NCBI GenBank assembly: GCA_000934665.2
Contig: KZ538445.1
Coordinates: 1-64,000, forward strand
Origin: Catajapyx aquilonaris
Lineage: Eukaryota
Length of the DNA stretch: 64,000 nucleotides
Reading direction: 5' to 3'
The notes under the pieces: generated by a model
Told to the model about the DNA's origin: nothing
Database searches by the model: none
Seen by the model: only the letters and a program-made list of their open reading frames with translations
Shown: positions 832 to 63,926 of the stretch, one piece after another
Layout of the letters: the number at the start of each line of letters is the position of its first letter
Numbering within the stretch: the first letter of the stretch is position 1
Program-made: the position numbers and the translations under genes

Positions 832-1739
832 GCGACCGTCTCCGAACCTGCTTAATTCTGAGCCCAATAAGCAATTTTCGACGAAACCAATTAAGATTCT
901 GAGAAAACGGCGCCGACTTTCGTGATGAGGCTGGGAGTATTGGGGTCAACAAGCCAGTGAGTTTTACAACCTGTGGATCGTTTCGACGTTTGGGATGGAT
1001 GGCGTACGTGGAGCTTGACGTAGTAAGGTCTACGTCAACTGCGCAAACACGCGTCACAGGCTATAGGGGAAGAGGAGTGGGGGGGTAGATTCCGACAGAA
1101 ATCACCCTGACCTCAAATGGGGCGAAATGGAGCACGGGAGGTCAGCATCCAAACTGGGCGAGGTCGCGGTTTGCTAAATGTCAGGGCGTGTGTTAGTATA
1201 GGGAAAGATCCTATATTTTTTTGTGTGCGATGAACTATACATTTCGACCCTGAGGGTACCTTATAAAAATTCGATGCGGCGCATAGATTGTATCAACAGT
1301 ACATTAACATTTATTGCGGTACCTGGACCTACCGTTGTGTATTTTTTAAAACACTATCAGGTCGGGGGGGTCTAGTAGGGTGTAACTATTTATGGGTTGA
1401 TCGACTTACAGTGTTGCATGCAGTATTGCAGTTTGCAACGGTATGGATAAAGTGACGTAAGTGCAGTTAGCTCGTAATCAGTATTAAAAAGTAGGTGCGC
1501 CGGATTTTAAATAGTGCCGCCCGATTATTCCCTGGTGGAGAGTTTTGTAACTGCGACTCATGCTGCTCGATGCCTGGACTCGTCGTGGCATCTAGCGGAA
1601 GGTGGCGAAATGTTACGATACACGGATAGTGCAGGAGCGGTGGTATCGTCGTTGACCAGCAAGGCAGCGTGGTGTGTGTTGAAGGTCGGTGGCCCACTTC
1701 CTATATTCTCAGGTATATTCATTGCAGGTGCTTTGGTCC

Positions 1740-4700
1740 ATGGTGCAGCTGGCCACGATGAAGAAGAAGGGAGGCGGCAAATCTCCAGCAGGGAAGAAGA
1801 AGGAGGGAGGGGTGGCCAATGGAGGTGCAGTCAACAAGGTGGGCAAGAAGGTCAGGGAGAAGCAGAAGAGGGCTGCTCTCATCAGGAAGAATCTGAAAGG
1901 AGGACTGGGTGCAGCCAACAAGAAGGACAAGGCAGCAGCAGGCAGCACCTCCGCTAGGATACCCGTAAAAGCAGAGGAAGCTTCTGGGAACTGGAAAGCG
2001 CTCCTTCAGGTACTATGACCATGCTGCTGGATGAGGTTCGGTATTTAGGCTACCCCCTGTACAGAATGTGCAGGGGTATCTTTTGGAGTTTTGGTAAAAT
2101 TTTCTAAACAATGACAATACATCATTTCCCATTAGTATGGAAAAACATTGACTACTGTGGGAAGGGTTGAACCCGTTGACCTGCCGTAGATTTGAAATCT
2201 TAGAATCAGATTATACAGAGTGTTACCAGGTAGTCCCCCCAACGAATCAGCTAAATTTAGATTTCTACTCTCCTTAGAAACATGACATTCGATTTACAAC
2301 TTACCTTAGTTCATGGGAATTTCGAACCATTCACAATAAATGCTGGAATTGGCCATCAACGACATCCATACACACTGAAATTCAGCGCAGTACGACGCTC
2401 GATATTATCGAAGGTTCTCAGTAGCATATTGACATCAATAGGCCAGATTGCTGCACTGACTTGTGAGTGTTTTGGAGCCATACAATGGTAGATGACCTCC
2501 TTTACAGGAAGTAAAATCAAATAAATGAAGCACAGGCTGGAAAAAGTCACTATAGCAGCGGTTGTCAAACTGTGGGGTGCGCCCCCCTGGGGAGGCGAAT
2601 CCAAAAATTATGTGATTCAAAAGAGGAACAAAAGTCGCACTGATTAGGTAAGAACTGGTAAGAACTACTTCTCAAGGCTTACTGTACAGTGCTGGACAAA
2701 TTAGCCGTCGCTGAATGTTTTTTTCCGGTGGCAGCGGCGTTACCTGGCAACCCTGTCTGGCAGGTCAATTCAAACATCAGCCCATGGAGAGCGCTTCCAC
2801 TGTTGCCACTGTTTACAAAACGAGTGAGTGAGTGCGCAGGCAGAAGAGACCCGTCGCTGGGTCGTTCGCGTCACTCACTCGATTTGTAAACAGTGGCAAC
2901 AATGGAAGTGCTCACAAAATTCATACTGCGGCGGGCTTATTGGACTTGCTGGGGGTAGGAGGGGTTGTAGATATCTGAAATTAATTTCCAGGGGGGCCCG
3001 ATGTGGCAAAGTTTGAGAACCGCTGCACTATAGGCAGGCCGCATTCTTGCCATTGAAGTGATAGTTTAACTAGTTGCGAATGGGAAATCTGCTGAATGCA
3101 CCGCTGGAAGCTAAGTTTCCATGGAGATGCCCTCACAACAATATGAGTAAACAGTGTCAGCAAAATGAACTCTCTTTACTCCTTGCTTTACTCCCATTGT
3201 TGCATGGGGGCATGTCCATGGAAACTTGAAAAGTGTGAGGTTCCATGGGTGCGTTTGGCAGATTTTCCATGACTAGGAGTTGGTAAACAAAATTAATGAT
3301 GACGTCAATGGCAAGTTAGCGTGGCCTGCCTATACAAATAAGTTTGCCACAATAAACTGGGTAATCTGTTTCCACCTGCCAAAGAGCTGCGAATGAGGCT
3401 ATTTGAAGACCAATGCTTACGACAATCAGCCACCATGTTAGAAGACTTTGGAAGGCAACATCAGTGCAGCAATCTCAACCAATGATAAGGATATGCTGCT
3501 GCGGAACTTCAACAATACGAAGTGTCGCGTCTCTTCGTGTTTGAGTGTGTCTGTATGTCAGGAGGACAATACCTGTGTAGCGCCAAAACTAGTTGTTACC
3601 TCAACGATGCTACAAGGACCCAGTTCGGGCTTTCACCGACTGTCCCGTCGGGATGGTGGAAGTACTTGCGTACCCCTCACACTACACACACACAATGCAC
3701 ACATCCAATACACATTGGCGGCGCTCACAAGCGGGAGCTGGCCAGGGCCTAATAGTTCGACTGCGCTCACTCACTGGAGCTGGCCAGGTATAAACCTCAC
3801 ACTCTTGTTCGATTAAAGGCCCATACACACAGGCCTTCGACGGTTTTGGTCTTTGGTCGCGTTGACACCGAAGACCAATCAACAAGTGCAGCACAAGTGT
3901 TGCGGTTGTTTACACGAGTCATGATTGGTCTGCGGCGTCAACGCGACCAAAGACCAAAACCGTCGACCACCTGTGTGTATGGGCCTTAAGACTGTCCCTG
4001 CACAACAAATAAAACACACTGTTCAGTTTAACACTGCACCTGGGACAAAGTCAGGGGTTAAAAGAATATTGGAGCAAAGGTTCAAGAGGACCTTACTCCT
4101 TGAGTTCTCAGACCAGGGGCGTAACTACCATAGGGGCAGGTGGGGCGACTGCCCCAGGGCCCCCGAATTTTCCGACGAGTTTGAGAAACTTTTGAGGAAA
4201 CCCACAAATCCATAATAGGCCTAACGTCTATAACCTATAGTCTATATTCTATAAGACGTAAGAAAGCGGGTTCGAACCAATCAATTCGGGGTCTTACTAT
4301 CTCACTGTCAGACTCTCGCAGTCGCAGTGTCTGTAATCAGTATGGCACAAAAACACTGAAAATGAGAAATCATTACATTAATAGTTATACGTAGTCATTA
4401 CGTATTACTATGGAGGGGGCCCCACGTACCTTTTTTCACAAGGGCCCCTAAGAGTCTTGTTACACCCCTGGCTCAGACCCAACTGACTCGACTTGCCTCT
4501 GGCTCAGCCAGTTTATAGAGAAATCTTGTTTACATGAACAATAACTCCATTGGAAGGTGGGTGAAGTAAACAATGAAAAGTGAAATTGCTTAGTTACAGG
4601 ATGACATGATTGAAACAAGTGATGTAACAAAATAATTATGAAAAAATGCTTACATGAAATTAATTGAACATGTCCTCGTCTTCGAGTCTTACACCTGGTT

Positions 4701-55960: not shown

Positions 55961-58303
55961 ACAACTGCCGACCCTATCTCTCTATATCTTGGCTACCCAA
56001 ACCACACCACTGTACCCCTCCCCTTTTATTGAAATCCTATAGTACTCAACAGTGATGCAAAAAAAAAAAATTTAATTAAAAATTGATAGGATCTGATAGG
56101 TTTTTCCTGTATCTCCTTTCCCTCCTCCCCCTTCCTTCAATCGGCTGCCTGTCATTATTTATGAGTAGGGGATCATGACTCGAGTGTGCAGGACCCTTCT
56201 AATGGAAGTCTTTTCTTTTTATAAGAACAAAAAAAAAATGGTGGATGAGGAACTAGTGTAGTGTGCATGATTAATAGGACCATAGACCATAGGGCTGTAC
56301 ATGAAAGTACATGTTTCGTTCTACAAGTAAGTGGAAATAAAATGAATATGCAGAAGAGAGACGTGACAACATGCGGAAATGGAGTGGCAAAGTGACAGTG
56401 TGAAACCAGGAGCCGACTTTTTTGTGTTTTGTCTTAATTTTGGTTCACCAGGCTCTACTACTTTTGCGTTGTACTTGTAACGGGTGGAAAAGGTTGTCTG
56501 GTTGCTTTTTGCCGGTGTGAACTGTTGAGAAGGGTATTTTTGTAACGGAGCTGGGCAACTCCCGTGCAAATATTGTGATTTTTTTCTATTCTTCTGTCCT
56601 GAAGTCTCTTTTATACGAGGGCGGGGTAATAGCAGGAAGTAGTGGTCTCTGGCTTTTTATTTATCCTGCTGTTTGTGACACATTTTCGAACTTGGCCTGC
56701 CTGGCATTTTCAAAACTCAATATAGCTTACCACTAGCAGCAGCAATTCAGGCAACATTTTCAGCAAATCCGTAGGGTTATGAAGTTGAGTAGAGCTGTGA
56801 ACTACCCCTCCCCCTCCTATTCCCCACATTCCCTCTTTATTTTTAAATTTGTTTGTTGAAGAGTGCATAAACAATGTGAAGAGAATAGTAATGAAGCATA
56901 ATATCACCCCCCATGTTCCTCCCACCACCATTTGAGTTAAAAACGGACAGTCGTAAATAAAGGATCGCTGATTCCATGATGTACAGATTTGTTACACAGC
57001 ACAATAGGCAAGCAGTGAGACGGGGAAGTTTTCAAGACGCCCTCAGTTCTGCCCTCCTCCTTTTGCGCTGAGCCACTACGCTCTGCCTCCACCTGAAGCT
57101 CATTAGTGACGGTATCATATTTATAAAAATTCACTATAATTTAAGCATTTTCTCGACTAGAAAAAAAAATAAAGAAGGTAGAGTTGTACATTGTTTCCTT
57201 TTTTTTTTAGTTAGCAGTACCTGTAGCTTGGAAAAATTGTCGGCCAATTCCTTGCTCTAGATAAGTTAGTGCGCGACATGCTGACGTGTACTGTACCGAC
57301 CAGGCCTGAATCTTGGACGTCTCGCACAAACTTGCAGAAGGGGCCATAATCTTCTGGAGAAACTTTCCAATGGCGTTAATCCTTGACTGGGAAGGAACCC
57401 CAGAAGCAGTTAATTTTGTTACTCTCAAATGTGATGATTTTTATTCTCGCTAGCCTCACCCTGTAAATTCCCCTCTGCGAGCACCTCCCGCAAGTTTGCG
57501 CAAGACATTGAAGATTCGGGCTGTAACCTCCGACGTGCCAAGTTCTGCTCTCTGCATTTGAAAGAAAAATTGCATTACAGGTACAGGGTGCCCCTACATG
57601 TTGCAATTATGATGCATGAGAAGGATTTTGCAGAACATTGCAATACGAAGGCCTGAATGTGACAAATTCATTCAGTAACACCCTGTCCAGCAAATAAGTT
57701 TTTGTCTGGGCATACACATCTCAAATGTTAAAGAGTAGTAATCAAGAGGTACAGTACCGGTTGGGGCTTGATTCTCTATTGATAGGTCATGGCGGATCAT
57801 GCACTTTGAGAAAGCAAGCTACACGTTTCTCTCACACAAGCATTAATCACCGACTGGTGATGTGCCTGATACATCTGTGGGGTTCTGAGCGTCAGTCACT
57901 GATGACGGGGCCCATCCCACGAGTATTGCAACTTAATGATTCACCAGTGTCCAGAGGGCAAGACATCAGAGGCCATTGGCCCTCTTTCAAGTTTGAATAT
58001 GGCGCTTGTGACTTGAACAAATATGGCCTCCACGTGTATGGCAGCGACTAATTTATATCAGGTTACATCATATTTATCATTAACGGTACATACTTTTTAC
58101 ACACTGGTAAGGAGCCCCATGAATTTAGGCGTGATTTGTGACACCGATGGTGACAAGGGTGATGTCACCACGTGATTAGATCATCACTGCACCCTCATCA
58201 TTTGGTGGTCCTCCTGCTGCACCGTTGCGATTCGGACCTCCTGGCAGTGGACAGTGTCCGCCGCATTGTCTTAATCCCTGCCCGTGGGGGCGAGAGTGTG
58301 GTG

Positions 58304-58700
58304 ATGCTCCTGTTCTGCCCTACCTGCGCCAACATCCTCGGGGTGGAGGAAGGGGCCCACCGAGGGCAGAGCTGCCTCCGATTCGCCTGCAACACGTGTC
58401 CGTACGTCCACAACGTCACACACAAGATCAGCAGCAGGGTCTATCCCAAGCTCAAGGTATGCAACTGGGCACACATTCGCCCTCTTGCCTTTCGAGTAAC
58501 ACATGCTTTTGCAGGAGGTGGACGACGTGCTGGGTGGCTCGGCCGCCTGGGAGAACGTGGACTCCACCACGGAGACCTGCCCCAAGTGCAGCCACCACCG
58601 TGCCTACTTCATGCAGATACAGACCCGATCCGCTGACGAGCCCATGACCACCTTCTACAAGTGCTGCAGTCCTCAGTGCGGACACCGCTGGAGGGACTAA
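58304..58700 (+). CDS. POLR3K: RNA polymerase III subunit RPC11 (112 aa)
   Basis: Exons 58304-58456 and 58515-58700. MLLFCPTC...RFACNTCPY, KLKEVDDVLGG and the TFIIS-like zinc ribbon CPKC..AYFMQIQTRSADEPMTTFYKCC. Confidence 0.96.
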
Positions 58701-58763
58701 TAGACAGCACCTGTGTGTGTGTGTGTGTGTGGACGGGTGGTCTTTTGAACAGACTGTTTTTCG

Positions 58764-59453
58764 ATGAATAAACTGGCAGCACTGATGACTGATGTGCTGC
58801 GGCTTGTCCCACCAAATGGTGTGACTGCTGGTAACTTGGAGGCTCTGGCCAGGCGCGCTGCAGAGGCCCTGCTGAAAGGACACGTCATAGCTATTCCCAC
58901 TGATACTGTGTATGGTATTGCGGCCTTGGCACAAGACACTGGTGCAGTGCAAAGCCTGTACGACATAAAAGGCCGCAACGGAAAGAAGCCAGTTGCGATC
59001 TGCGTTGGTAGCATCCCAGAAGTAGGCCGTTGGGGCACTGTTAACGTCCCAAATCAGGTCTTGCATGAGCTTTTGCCAGGACCTGTGACCCTTGTATTCA
59101 AACGCACTCCAGAACTCAATCCCGGCTTGAATCCAGACACTGATCTGGTTGGTATTCGCATTCCGGACCACGAGTTTGTGCATCGTGTTGCAGTCCTCTG
59201 TGGCAGCCCTCTTGCCCTCACCAGTGCCAATCCAAGTGCATCGCAAAGTACTCTGAGTGCAGACGAGTTTAAGGAACTGTGGCCCAAGTTGAGGTGTGTA
59301 TTTGATGGGGGAAGACTAGGGGATGCACGGGAGGGGTCTACAGTGGTAGACCTGTCCACCCCAGGAACTTACAGAGTCATACGAGACGGGAGTGCACTTG
59401 GACCTACCAAGTGTGTGCTGGACATATACCTACGCTGTGAGAATAACATGTAA
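58764..59453 (+). CDS. YRDC: Threonylcarbamoyl-AMP synthase (YrdC/Sua5; t6A tRNA modification), intronless
   Basis: Motifs PTDTVYG, KGR..KP, LPGPVT, GIRIP, PLALTSANPS and GSTVVD. Confidence 0.95.
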   Translation: MNKLAALMTDVLRLVPPNGVTAGNLEALARRAAEALLKGHVIAIPTDTVYGIAALAQDTGAVQSLYDIKGRNGKKPVAICVGSIPEVGRWGTVNVPNQVLHELLPGPVTLVFKRTPELNPGLNPDTDLVGIRIPDHEFVHRVAVLCGSPLALTSANPSASQSTLSADEFKELWPKLRCVFDGGRLGDAREGSTVVDLSTPGTYRVIRDGSALGPTKCVLDIYLRCENNM

Positions 59454-59530
59454 CAGGAGGTGAGTGTCACAATCCATGCCCCACGGCAGGTGATCTAAAG
59501 ATATAAATTTCCAAGCCCCATACAGGGATC

Positions 59531-62281
59531 ATGGCGCTTCGTAGTCGAGCATCAAGCCGTGAGGCTGCTGTCAAGGCCTCGCTGACTGCCAACCTGATCG
59601 AGTACATCAAGGAGGTTCAGCTGAAGCATGCCAACCTCGGAGGAAAACTCACAACGGAGGAGGAGACGAACGAGCTGTGCACAGTGCTGGAGGCCATCTT
59701 CGTCCATGGCCTCAAGGACACACTCATGAAACGTGTTTCTTCAGCCCTGGGTGGGGACCATCCTGACAGGCGCATGCCAGAACCCGACTTCTGGAGCCCT
59801 CTCATGGTGTTCTCACACAAGGATGTCATGGAGCAAATTGCATGTTACACTAGAATTGTTACTGACATTGGACGTTGCAGGGCATGGCTTCGTTTAGCAT
59901 TAAACGAAGGGTTGATGAGTAGTTACTTGGCAGCAATGCATAAAGATAAGTCGACCCTGAAGGATTATTACTCGAAGCATGCGTACTTGCGAGACTCTGA
60001 ACATTTTGATATCATGCGGACGTATTTAGTGGGAGTTGAGGAGTACGAGTTTCAACTCGCCTGCAATTCAAGTGTGTTGAATTCTTGGACAAGCTCGCCA
60101 CTTGCTCTGGCAGGACTGTGGATTCCGCCAATGGCAAGGCCTGCTGCTGTGGTGCAGGGTGTGGATGCAATTGAGGTCCTAGGTGAGGAGGTGCCTGCCT
60201 TTCCAAGTTTCGTGAGGCCAGAGCCCATGCCGTATGTCGCTAGAACACCAGTTCTCAATGAAGACGAGGCCTTGAGGGTGATTCTGGCCCCACGGCAGGA
60301 AGAGGAGGAGGATCCAGAGCCAGCAGCCATGAAAGGAGCTAGGAGGAAGGTGCGGCGCCGGAAAATAGTGCTAAAGGAACCACCTGATGATGTCAATGTT
60401 CCTAAGCCAGAAACTGTAGCCAAAACTGTAGAAGAATTGCCTAAGCTTGTAGTGGATGACGTTGCGCTTAAAAGCAATACAGAATCAGAACTGGAAGGTG
60501 ACCCAGAGCCAAAGCTCGAAGAAACTAAACCGACTGACATAACCTCATCAAATGGGGTTGTGTCAGATGGCACAGATGTATCTCCAAATGAGCCCAAGGA
60601 TGAGTCGGAAGAATCAGGTGTGGGAAATTCTCTTGGAGGTCGCCTGGGATGGTCGTCGTCTTTTGAAGAAGACCAAGAGGAATGTTCGGAGCTCTCAACG
60701 TCTACTATTTCGAGGCAGTCTTCCGAACCTGAGAGCTTCCAGAGCCTGCTACAAAACTATAGCCCACTAACAAAGCCCATTCCCAGGTCAGCCAATCCAG
60801 ATTTTGAGGTCGTGTGTCCGGCAGCCAACGACACTCCTGCGGCCCACTCGAAGGAGGAGGAGGAGGAAATTATCAGGGTGTGTATTTGGGCCAAGTTGAA
60901 GGTGACAATCTAATTTTCAGTCACAGTTGCCATTCCATGCAACTTGATGGGTTGTCAACTTTCCAGATATCAGTAGTTAAAAGCTCATGCTGAGACACCT
61001 TTCCTAACGAATTTTCTCTCCCGGGTTTCTCTCCTGTTTTTTTCTCTCTGCCTTGCGAAGAGTCCGACAAGCCCCGGATCAGACTTTGAGATCATCCGTC
61101 ATGCACACCTGGTCAGTATAGTCTGAGCGTCACTGGGCACCTCTCGGATTGCATGCGTATATCTTGTGGGTTTGTTAGTTGTAGTTTCTCGGGTGCTTTC
61201 GACACACTTTTTTGTTTCATTTCTGCACAGAAAAGTCCTGTGTTGAGTGACTGCGGATTTACTTACAAATACTTACTGCTTTTTTGTCTCGCTTCATGCT
61301 AGTTGTCATCACCACAGCACATTTCAACTTATTTTCTACTTCACTGGGGTACTAATGCACTAGTGGTTGTGACAACATTGTGATTGAATGCGTACTCGAA
61401 TTCTGAACTTTCCTGCAGGAGTACAACATGTCACAGCTTCGTCGAATCGCCACCGAGCAAGGACTTGACTCGCAGAACTATGAGTGCAAGAGCTGTGGAC
61501 GACCCATAGGCATGATATATGGGAAGCCCCGCGTCTGCTCCTTCAGTGGGCACTATTTCTGTTACGAGTGCCATGAGAATGAGGAGTCGGAGATTCCGGC
61601 TCGGATTGTGCACAACTGGGACTTCCAGAGGCATCCTGTCTCCCGAGGAGCCTTACGCTTCCTCTCCCAGGTGGAACACGAGCCTCTGCTCAACATCATG
61701 GAGATCAACCCAATCCTGTACCATGTCATCGAAGAGATGAACGAACTGCAGTCGCTGAGGACGCAGCTCAACTTTCTGCGAGCATACCTGTACACCTGTA
61801 GGGAACCAGTCATCGAGGAGCTCAGGCACAGGGTGTGGCCCAGGGAATACCTTTGCGAGCATGTGCACCTGTACTCGCTGTCGGTGAGTCCCATTACTTT
61901 TGGGGGATCAGTATCGACATTAATTTCGTCCCTTTTCCACAGGATTTACTGACCGCACCGACACGTGAACTGGCCCACAAGCTTCAGAAGGTCGTTGCAT
62001 TTGCACGGTCACATGTGGCCAGCTGCTGCACATGCAATCCCAAGGGCTTCATCTGCGAAGTCTGCGACAACCCACAAATTATCTACCCTTTTGATTTGAG
62101 CACCACATATCGGGTATGTGCAGCAACCTCGATTGTGATGCTGATTAGTGACCTAACCGCTTCCATTTTCCAGTGCCCCACCTGCTGTGCCGTGTTCCAC
62201 AGGAATTGCCTGGATTCGGCCAAGCCTTGCCCCAAGTGCGAGAGGCGGAAGAAGCGCCAGGACCCACTGGAGCTGCCGTAA
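59531..62281 (+). CDS. PLEKHM1: PLEKHM1-like RUN + Rubicon-homology (zf-RING_9/DUF4206) protein
   Basis: Exons 59531-60877, 61061-61111, 61419-61883, 61943-62113 and 62174-62281, all phase 0. RUN motifs LEAIFVHGLK and GRCRAWLRLALNE; RH motifs GLDSQNYEC, IPARIVHNWDF, KGFICEVC and CPKCER. No PH domains seen. Confidence 0.88.
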
Positions 62282-62711
62282 TCCTCGCTTCCAAAACTGT
62301 CTGCGATACAGAAAGCATAATAAGTCAAGACCACTGTGATGCCTATATTTCCCTATAAATGTTGTACACCACCCGCGTTGAAGATGTGCCTATGCTGCGT
62401 TGGCTTCCTTGCGAGCATTGATATAATTATGTTTCAGGGGGATTTGAAATCATGTTGGGGGTTTTGCTATTTTATTCAGTCAATTTAAATACATGCAAAT
62501 TTTTGTAAAACTGATTCAAAATGCAAATTTCAGGACCAAATCATGCGATGTAACACGATTGTGCATAATAAATTTTTTTGAAGTGTTGCACATTTTTTGG
62601 CCTTTTTTTTTTAGGGGGGCGGGGTTGATTTGGGCGCCATCTGTCGGATGGTTGTGATTGGCTGTGCATCTGGCCACACTGCTTCTGGTGGCGCCAAAGG
62701 TGCCTCTAGTG

Positions 62712-63164
62712 CAGTGTTACCAGATGTACCATAATTATGGTATTCATACCATAATTTCGGGTTCCGTACCATGTACCATAATGGTACGCAAAAAGTACCA
62801 TTATTTTGTCAAGTCCAATGTTACTCTGCAATTCCACTTCCATGAAAAGCGTGATACCAATTTAACCACATATACACCTATTCAAATCTCCCAGTAGGTT
62901 ACATTCACCAAAACTTGTGTGACCTTGAACCAAAAGAAAATTTTCGCCTGCGGCGCGCTTTTCCCTCCCCGCCAGTACTTTACTACTTTCCCCGGTTTCG
63001 ACTACTTTATCATGGTTAACTTTTTAATTACGGCTATTTAAATTTAAATTGTCTTTAATTAACATTAATTACGCCATTTTTGAAATGTACCATCTTTTCC
63101 GGAAAAGTACCATTTATTTCGAGGGTTGGTACCATTTACTCGATCTCACGATCTGGCAACTCTG
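62712..63164. mobile_element. Non-autonomous hAT element just upstream of pch2
   Basis: TIRs CAGTGTTACCAGAT / ATCTGGCAACTCTG; perfect TSD CTCTAGTG (62704-62711, 63165-63172); repeated subterminal GTACCAT motifs. Confidence 0.88.
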
Positions 63165-63223: not shown

Positions 63224-63926
63224 ATGCAGACATTGCGGAGAGAGATGGAGACGGATAAGGGTGAGGGGAGCGTGGTGGTGCATGTGGAGGTGAGGCTCAA
63301 AACGGCAGGGTTCAAGGCACAGCTGCAGCCCCACCTGGAGGAGATGGTGTCCCGCCTGGATGGGGTCACTTCAGGTCAGGTGGTGACCCAGTTCGAGGAA
63401 GGTCAGCTGAGGGACAACCTGGAGGAGGTCAGCTTCCACTTTGATGGGGAGGAGGAGGAGGTGCGACCTGCACATTGCCTGGTGGCGTACCACGTGTACA
63501 GGCTGGACGACAGCGGGCCTGAGCTGGAGGAGATGGACGAGGAGGGCGGCTTGGCCGCAGCCACCCACTGGGTCCTGCCCTCCAAGGAGCTCAAGGACCT
63601 CTGGAGCACGCTCATCTACGATACAGATGTCAAGGGAAAGGTAACGATCATGGAGCACCAGTTGGGCTCGGTAACCACAACTTTTGCGTAATCTGCAGCT
63701 GATTAGGTATATGGAAACCTGCCTGCTGTTTGCAGAGAAGAAGGTGAACCAGGATATTGTGAGCAACAATCAGCTGGTGCTGTTGTATGGACCGCCAGGG
63801 ACGGGGAAGACCTCGCTTTGCAAAGCGCTGGCTCAGAAGCTGACCATTCGTCTGGGCCACAAGTATGCATATGGACAGCTGATTGAGATCAACAGCCACA
63901 GCCTGTTTTCAAAGTGGTTCTCAGAG
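63224..63926 (+). CDS. pch2: Pachytene checkpoint 2 / TRIP13 AAA+ ATPase (5' part; continues past the window)
   Basis: Exons 63224 (or 63245)-63640 and 63699-63926. AATHWVLPS, Walker [18 protein letters not shown] and [14 protein letters not shown]. Confidence 0.93.

Follow-up and report, generated by a model that had tools for sequence, protein, structure and literature searches.

An operon-like locus in Catajapyx aquilonaris, probably one old transcription unit for POLR3K, YRDC and a PLEKHM1-type protein

When genes for unrelated proteins follow each other on one strand with hardly any sequence between them, are they transcribed one by one or as a single unit? The question is raised by a locus at positions 58304-62281 of a 64,000-nucleotide (nt) stretch of Catajapyx aquilonaris DNA (GenBank assembly GCA_000934665.2, contig KZ538445.1, positions 1 to 64,000 of the forward strand; referred to below as the window). 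Three complete coding sequences (CDSs) lie there on the plus strand, namely those of the RNA polymerase III (Pol III) subunit POLR3K/RPC11, of the threonylcarbamoyl-AMP (TC-AMP) synthase YRDC and of a PLEKHM1-like protein, as an earlier note made from the letters alone had described and as the sequence and its list of open reading frames (ORFs) bear out. We read this arrangement, with a probability of about 0.6, as an ancient operon-like locus in which one RNA polymerase II (Pol II) unit carries all three genes. Such a unit would extend over ~4.4 kb, from position 58158 or upstream of it to past an AATAAA at 62567, and its primary transcript would be cis-spliced at one intron in POLR3K, one 56-nt intron in the second intercistronic spacer and three or four introns in PLEKHM1.

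The first layer of evidence is the spacing of the genes. Spacer 1, between POLR3K and YRDC, measures 63 nt (58701-58763) and spacer 2, between YRDC and PLEKHM1, measures 77 nt (59454-59530), exactly as the earlier note had given them. That note had also stated that neither spacer contains AATAAA or has room for a 3' untranslated region (UTR) plus a promoter, and both statements stand (63 nt in one case, 77 nt or 21 nt once spliced in the other). A census of polyadenylation (poly(A)) signals over 58001-62800 finds two copies of AATAAA, at 58767 and 62567, and a single ATTAAA, at 59899; ATTAAA is likewise missing from both spacers, and the stretch 58773-59898 is free of both motifs. The first AATAAA (58767-58772), which the note overlooked, starts 4 nt beyond spacer 1, in YRDC codons 2-3, and is a putative poly(A) signal for a monocistronic POLR3K mRNA. 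Spacer 1 opens with a second in-frame stop, contains a (TG)10 run at 58712-58731 and no ATG, and carries a candidate splice acceptor (...gaacag) 13 nt ahead of the YRDC ATG. Spacer 2 holds in its entirety a 56-nt GT..AG intron (59460-59515), the donor of which is located 6 nt past the YRDC stop codon.

The second layer is RNA, and it concerns the second junction. RNA data were taken from the one public run that matches the locus, named X1 here, in which 68% of the sampled words were matched and whose contigs are assemblies. Six GT..AG joints at predicted introns indicate that these contigs are RNA-derived, the type of the run being deduced in this way, and nine of the 12 contig records are at least 99% alike. 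The key one is record 2 (655 nt), which covers 58979-59457 in YRDC, continues past the stop codon, skips 56 nt and resumes at 59516-59689 in PLEKHM1 exon 1 (joint 59457->59514, cut +2, its shorter side counting 176 letters). Of the YRDC CDS it thus includes the final 475 nt and of PLEKHM1 the initial 159 nt, with the spacer between them, which splicing reduces to 21 nt from ORF to ORF. The operon-like shared transcript proposed by the earlier note is therefore likely at least for YRDC and PLEKHM1, which are joined by one spliced RNA contig. That POLR3K is part of the same RNA is suggested by the 63-nt spacer in combination with the dicistron formed by the orthologous genes of Drosophila and with a spacer of 5 nt in a termite locus (L009), both described below.

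The third layer is conservation. The earlier note saw here a conserved dicistron that had been extended locally by a third cistron. This did not hold, as the adjacency of YRDC and PLEKHM1, and twice the whole trio, recurs in distant arthropods. Among the YRDC relatives longer than 401 residues (n=31), three models combine PF01300, PF02759 and PF13901, and these come from the ostracod Darwinula stevensoni and from the beetles Carabus blaptoides and Lamprigera yunnana. A fourth fused model, from the water bug Ranatra chinensis, was the only one found in 14 models scanned out of 150 PLEKHM1 relatives, those 14 being the relatives with an N-terminal extension plus the top match. In the Darwinula, Carabus and Lamprigera models the YRDC part ends at residues 206-222 and the PLEKHM1 part begins at 217-233, ~10 residues apart, and the four models (P0072, P0079, P0096 and P0228) are 860-921 residues long. 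They are probably artefacts of gene predictors that bridged two abutting genes. Among the top 120 of 1402 similarly long YRDC relatives no model fuses RPC11 to YRDC, all 120 carrying PF01300 only.

Gene order itself was read from metagenome contigs. A scan with an alignment of the PLEKHM1 N-terminus gave 35 loci, 14 of which are informative, i.e., include the N-terminus and at least 700 nt of upstream sequence. YRDC lies directly upstream on the same strand in four of these 14 (L001, L008, L009 and L031), and RPC11 precedes it in two, which thus contain the whole trio. One of these, L001, is springtail-like (nearest named relative Allacma, 55%), with 137 nt between RPC11 and YRDC and 20 nt between YRDC and PLEKHM1; the other, L009, is from a termite (nearest named relative Cryptotermes, 79%), with spacers of 5 nt and 148 nt, respectively. 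L008 (nearest named relative Darwinula, 41%) has 99 nt between YRDC and PLEKHM1, and the 10 kb upstream contain no RPC11. L031 (nearest named relative the bug Ranatra, 46%) begins inside YRDC and has a spacer of 148 nt before PLEKHM1, its YRDC C-terminus and spacer nearly matching those of termite L009. Judged from these gene orders, the three-gene order is old within Pancrustacea, and some lineages have since loosened or lost it. In a quick single-gene tree the protein of the window falls outside the winged-insect clade with a support of 97, its finer placement not being given by the tree.

The first two cistrons are in addition a known pair in flies. The earlier note had named Drosophila CG33785 and CG33786 as an annotated RPC11/YRDC dicistron, and this proved to be real according to both the FlyBase supplement and Hayden & Bosco. 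CG33785 (Polr3K/RPC11) and CG33786 (YrdC/Tcs2), at 57A8-A9, are orthologous to cistrons 1 and 2 and alike in order and strand; they are listed with a common transcript extent, as 'all di/polycistronic' and with a 1-nt overlap (PMC4528330, supplement rows), whereas the two ORFs are 63 nt apart here and 5 nt apart in termite L009. CG33786 is the fly Tcs2/YRDC (PMC5372737), and the accessible part of Hayden & Bosco traces the pair to a Bombyx expressed sequence tag (PMC2276209). In the FlyBase lists searched no third cistron accompanies CG33785/CG33786, which appear as the RPC11/YRDC dicistron only. According to the part of Crosby et al. (2015) available to us, FlyBase polycistronic nuclear loci comprise 159 dicistronic, seven tricistronic and two tetracistronic cases, and stop-to-start distances at exclusively polycistronic loci range from -34 to 319 nt. 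Processed mRNAs of this FlyBase class span unrelated CDSs, while at the present locus only the junction of cistrons 2 and 3 is bridged, and this by an assembled contig.

The main competitor of the single unit is a set of three packed but independent transcription units, each with its promoter inside the preceding gene. POLR3K would then end after the AATAAA at 58767, YRDC would use the ATTAAA at 59899 or some non-canonical end site, and PLEKHM1 transcripts would begin within the YRDC CDS, so that the 56-nt intron would belong to their 5' UTR. Several findings weigh against one shared unit, and most of them are what this alternative would draw on. Both signals exist, and they could end a monocistronic POLR3K mRNA and a POLR3K-YRDC mRNA, respectively. 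Record 2 begins only at 58979, that is 215 nt inside YRDC, and a PLEKHM1 transcript begun within YRDC would look alike; moreover, assembled contigs cannot prove one molecule, and the RNA contigs leave 58632-58835, the POLR3K-YRDC junction, uncovered, with the TG repeat skipped at 58704-58741. Eight ATGs lie between the starts of YRDC and PLEKHM1. In other arthropods ATTAAA occurs in the YRDC-PLEKHM1 spacers of L008 (9866-9964), L009 (3875-4022) and L031 (553-700), which means that the upstream mRNA may end between the genes, so that adjacency need not mean one mRNA, and which gives the independent units some weight. Ten of the 14 informative loci have no YRDC upstream, including four near-identical hymenopteran contigs in which 2.2-8.8 kb of sequence precede PLEKHM1; further loci without it are one fish contig, two distant relatives (25-28% identity), L019 and L033 (~1.4 kb upstream) and L002, where another gene lies in front of PLEKHM1 (see below). 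The intronless, arthropod-like contigs L013, L015, L016 and L018 contain PLEKHM1 behind a leader of 130-205 nt and no YRDC, and may be cut contigs. In the fly, CG6613 (Plekhm1) does not occur in the FlyBase polycistronic lists searched (file 1 left out), and many FlyBase polycistronic loci also yield monocistronic isoforms, as stated in the accessible text of Crosby et al. (2015).

On the other side of the balance, the gaps of 63 nt and of 21 or 77 nt offer no space outside coding sequence for a 3' UTR and a promoter, and no canonical signal occurs from the region of the YRDC start to 59899. The spacer intron, whose donor follows the YRDC stop so closely, is spliced out of an RNA that extends over 479 nt of YRDC; the fly orthologues of POLR3K and YRDC are annotated as exclusively polycistronic (PMC4528330); and spacers as short as 5 nt (L009) and 20 nt (L001) exist. 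We therefore regard three independent units as a tentative alternative, possible but doubtful, and continue with the single Pol II unit as the preferred reading.

A shared unit could also be cut into separate messages. Nematodes and tunicates have operons in which a single promoter serves genes on one strand with gaps of tens of nucleotides and which are resolved by spliced leader (SL) trans-splicing; an operon resolved in this way would deliver capped monocistronic mRNAs. Copepods and amphipods are reported to use SL trans-splicing, the present organism is an arthropod outside the winged insects according to the single-gene tree, and AG acceptors preceded by pyrimidines are available 13 nt upstream of the YRDC start codon and, for PLEKHM1, at distances of 15 and 5 nt from the ATG, all of which would suit this mechanism. 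However, the donor at 59460 is spliced in cis to the acceptor at 59515, and loose ends, i.e., foreign 5' letters, are absent at all of these acceptors (58751 and 59516 among them) and at the 5' end of record 1, which with such thin cover is weak evidence. The only loose ends in the X1 contigs are found at 62733-62954. Furthermore, the cluster is also present in winged insects (termite contig, beetle and bug models, fly dicistron), a group that is not known to use SL trans-splicing. The locus thus differs from SL operons in its cis-joined spacer acceptor, in the lack of leader-bearing contig ends and in spacers without poly(A) signal, and resolution by trans-splicing appears very unlikely. As a separate observation, the loose ends at 62733-62954, four in number, cluster together with a 2-nt deletion (62935) between the 3' end of PLEKHM1 and TRIP13, which suggests a repeat or other transcripts.

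Yet another possibility is that YRDC and PLEKHM1 are made as one fusion protein, by readthrough of the YRDC stop codon or by an alternative donor ahead of it. With a spliced spacer of 21 nt the two ORFs share one reading frame and are separated by a single TAA plus seven sense codons, and fused models came out of four annotation pipelines for other species. Nevertheless, a stop-free in-frame spacing is expected by chance about one time in four, and the in-frame spacing is not conserved, being 20 nt in L001 and 99 nt with in-frame stops in L008. The fused models omit the YRDC stop and the PLEKHM1 start, a typical error of gene prediction where genes lie very close together, and the sole observed joint lies past the YRDC stop. 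Of all the explanations considered, a fusion protein is the one that we find hardest to credit.

If one RNA does carry the three genes, how would the downstream ORFs be translated? They would be reached by reinitiation after termination, or be translated from shorter isoforms, possible sources of which are internal starts and the signals AATAAA 58767 and ATTAAA 59899. Reinitiation would fit the short spacers, i.e., the 1-nt overlap in the fly, the 5 nt of L009 and the 20-21 nt in front of PLEKHM1 at L001 and at the present locus. For PLEKHM1 the eight ATGs mentioned above make leaky scanning unlikely. Start contexts differ, that of YRDC being weak (T at -3) and that of PLEKHM1 strong (A at -3, G at +4). 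Depletion of ATGs in POLR3K was considered as evidence for leaky scanning and rejected: the CDS contains zero out-of-frame ATGs while resampling of pooled codons expects 5.1 (P 0.001), but permutation within the gene expects only 1.0 (P 0.285), and the GC content at third codon positions (GC3) of 0.86 accounts for the difference. GC3 differs sharply inside the putative unit, with values of 0.86 for POLR3K, 0.49 for YRDC and 0.58 for PLEKHM1.

The strongest form of the proposal, a truly tricistronic mRNA that predates the split of ostracods, springtails and winged insects and yields three proteins from one capped molecule by efficient reinitiation, we consider unlikely. If it were true, the expression of a Pol III subunit, of the first enzyme of t6A modification and of a Rab7/lysosome-autophagy adaptor would be tied stoichiometrically, and reinitiation would take place after long ORFs, which standard eukaryotic translation handles poorly. 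The earlier note had gone further and suggested a coupling of tRNA supply with lysosomal traffic. This is speculation, for which there is nothing beyond co-location, and persistence through shared transcription is a simpler account. The arrangement may have been kept since genes locked in one unit separate poorly, and not since their proteins cooperate.

Other multi-ORF transcripts offer partial parallels. Conserved nuclear transcripts with several ORFs for unrelated proteins are likewise described in green algae, in the available portions of Gallaher et al. (2021) and of a 2025 follow-up, where leaky scanning is reportedly used, a route at odds with the ATGs between YRDC and PLEKHM1. The Bombyx paralytic-peptide mRNA encodes three proteins, and the part of that report at hand (J Biol Chem 2010, PMC2978622) describes an ORF choice by context-dependent scanning among close starts, whereas the present locus contains three long, non-overlapping and anciently conserved genes. 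Among the papers listed by the literature searches, none links the YRDC and PLEKHM1 loci. The locus belongs with the arthropod polycistronic genes as catalogued in Drosophila, its first two cistrons being an already known dicistron; what is new is the third cistron, the spliced intercistronic intron and the breadth of conservation.

The identities that the earlier note assigned to the three genes hold by comparison with Pfam, PDB and homologues, with the qualification that PLEKHM1 has no detected PH domain. The unit opens with a 5' leader of at least 146 nt (58158-58303), defined by RNA contig record 1 (58158-58457), which contains a 5-codon upstream ORF with its ATG at 58162. An E-box, CACGTGA (TCACGTG on the other strand), occurs in this leader at 58169-58175, 11 nt from the start of the RNA contig; at a lysosomal gene a site of the MITF/TFE type would be of interest, but a single 7-mer easily arises by chance. 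POLR3K exon 1 (58304-58456; ATG at 58304, 51 codons) encodes the N-terminal Zn ribbon (Pfam Zn_ribbon_RPB9, E-value (E) 6e-06) and matches residues 1-47 of human RPC10 with E 2.8e-17. A predicted 58-nt GT..AG intron follows (58457-58514), its joint not being among the RNA joints listed; record 1 stops at 58457, the first base of this intron. Exon 2 (58515-58700; 61 codons and TAA) encodes the TFIIS-type C-terminal Zn ribbon (Pfam Zn_ribbon_TFIIS 7e-21), and the TAA at 58698-58700 is directly followed by the TAG of spacer 1. This exon matches residues 48-108 of human RPC10 with E 1.4e-36, compared with 2e-11 for RPB9 and 1.6e-06 for RPA12. Gene 1 is by these matches the Pol III subunit RPC11/POLR3K (RPC10 in PDB naming) and not its Pol II or Pol I paralogue.

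YRDC is encoded by a single exon of 229 codons (58764-59453; Pfam Sua5_yciO_yrdC 2.7e-41), in which the profile is matched over positions 1-178 of 178, i.e., as a full-length domain. TC-AMP synthases are among its PDB matches and it is 55-62% identical to metazoan YRDC proteins, its best named relatives being scattered over Metazoa and including several malacostracans. On this basis gene 2 is the YRDC/Sua5 threonylcarbamoyl-AMP synthase.

Gene 3 has five exons, one of them optional. Exon 1 (59531-60877; ATG at 59531, 449 codons) encodes a RUN domain at residues 48-178 (Pfam RUN 2.2e-25) followed by a low-complexity region. A cassette exon of 17 codons (61061-61111, 51 nt), seen in RNA joints and in translation, is followed by three exons that encode the Rubicon-homology (RH) domain, a Rab7-binding zinc-finger domain in PLEKHM1: its first part in exon 3 (61419-61883; Pfam RH_dom 2.8e-37, RNA record 5), its continuation in exon 4 (61943-62113; RH_dom 3.1e-15, joint 61882->61942) and its end in exon 5 (62174-62281; RH_dom 0.002, joint 62112->62173), which closes with the stop TAA at 62279-62281. 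The putative 3' UTR (62282-62590) includes the AATAAA at 62567-62572, the sole canonical signal 3' of 58767 on the plus strand within the region of the census; record 5 reaches 62547. The RUN domain matches that of human PLEKHM1 (8jc5_C) with E 6.2e-38 and that of PLEKHM2 with 1e-12, and the RH domain of exons 3-5 matches that of Rubicon (6wcw) with E 4.6e-24. No PH domain was found at Pfam E <= 0.01 in any gene 3 exon, divergent PH folds not having been tested by structure; PH matches are present in the longer relatives P0303, P0359 and P0362. In view of the RUN and RH domains without PH, Rubicon was considered as the identity of gene 3 and rejected, because the RUN domain is far closer to PLEKHM1 than to other solved RUN domains; Rubicon RUN is itself absent from the solved-structure matches of this domain. 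Related arthropod models bear the name PLEKHM1 and likewise consist of RUN and RH only, and the safest name on sequence grounds is an arthropod PLEKHM1-type RUN+RH protein. The accessible part of one report describes the fly orthologue, CG6613, as a Rab7 effector (PMC6176938).

In the RNA contigs the cassette exon of gene 3 is both included (joints 60876->61060 and 61110->61418) and skipped (60876->61418). It encodes the stretch ...GSDFEII..., and a similar one, ...NPDFEVV..., is encoded at the end of exon 1 (60795-60815). We take the DFEII and DFEVV stretches to resemble LC3-interacting (LIR-type) motifs and regard them as candidates; given that the exon is optional, alternative splicing may add or remove the DFEII stretch as a second motif of this type.

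The surroundings of the unit are sparsely occupied. The nearest identified coding exon upstream belongs to a kinase domain and extends to 54664, more than 3 kb from the unit, and downstream an N-terminal exon of TRIP13 begins at 63224, 943 nt past the stop of gene 3. The window is gene-poor, hence the tight packing of the three genes is not a chance feature of a dense region. Neither the kinase nor TRIP13 neighbours PLEKHM1 in any of the 35 metagenome loci, and searches of the window with Rfam and Tandem Repeats Finder returned 0 matches and 0 rows, respectively. Two further contexts of PLEKHM1 relatives were encountered. L002, an intronless contig of 4.2 kb, contains the ORF of a DP transcription factor (21-1289; Pfam DP 6.6e-53) and, 177 nt after it on the same strand, a complete PLEKHM1-like ORF of 793 codons (1467-3848), which may represent another polycistronic context of PLEKHM1 in an arthropod-like organism. 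P0300, a model of 2418 residues, joins a Pao-type retrotransposon polyprotein (peptidase A17, reverse transcriptase, integrase) to a RUN+RH protein and is likely a mis-annotation.

In all, conserved polycistronic loci are rare in animals without spliced leaders, and they are natural tests of how ribosomes gain access to a second or third long ORF. The present locus contributes to this a natural series of RPC11-YRDC spacers (ORFs overlapping by 1 nt in the fly, 5 nt in the termite contig, 63 and 137 nt elsewhere), a second series of 20-148 nt before PLEKHM1, and an intron placed exactly between two cistrons. A practical consequence is that at least four deposited genomes list a false protein in which annotation pipelines have fused YRDC and PLEKHM1. 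The linkage has been broken in Hymenoptera and, for the third gene, apparently in Drosophila, which makes the locus well suited to asking whether shared transcription constrains gene order.

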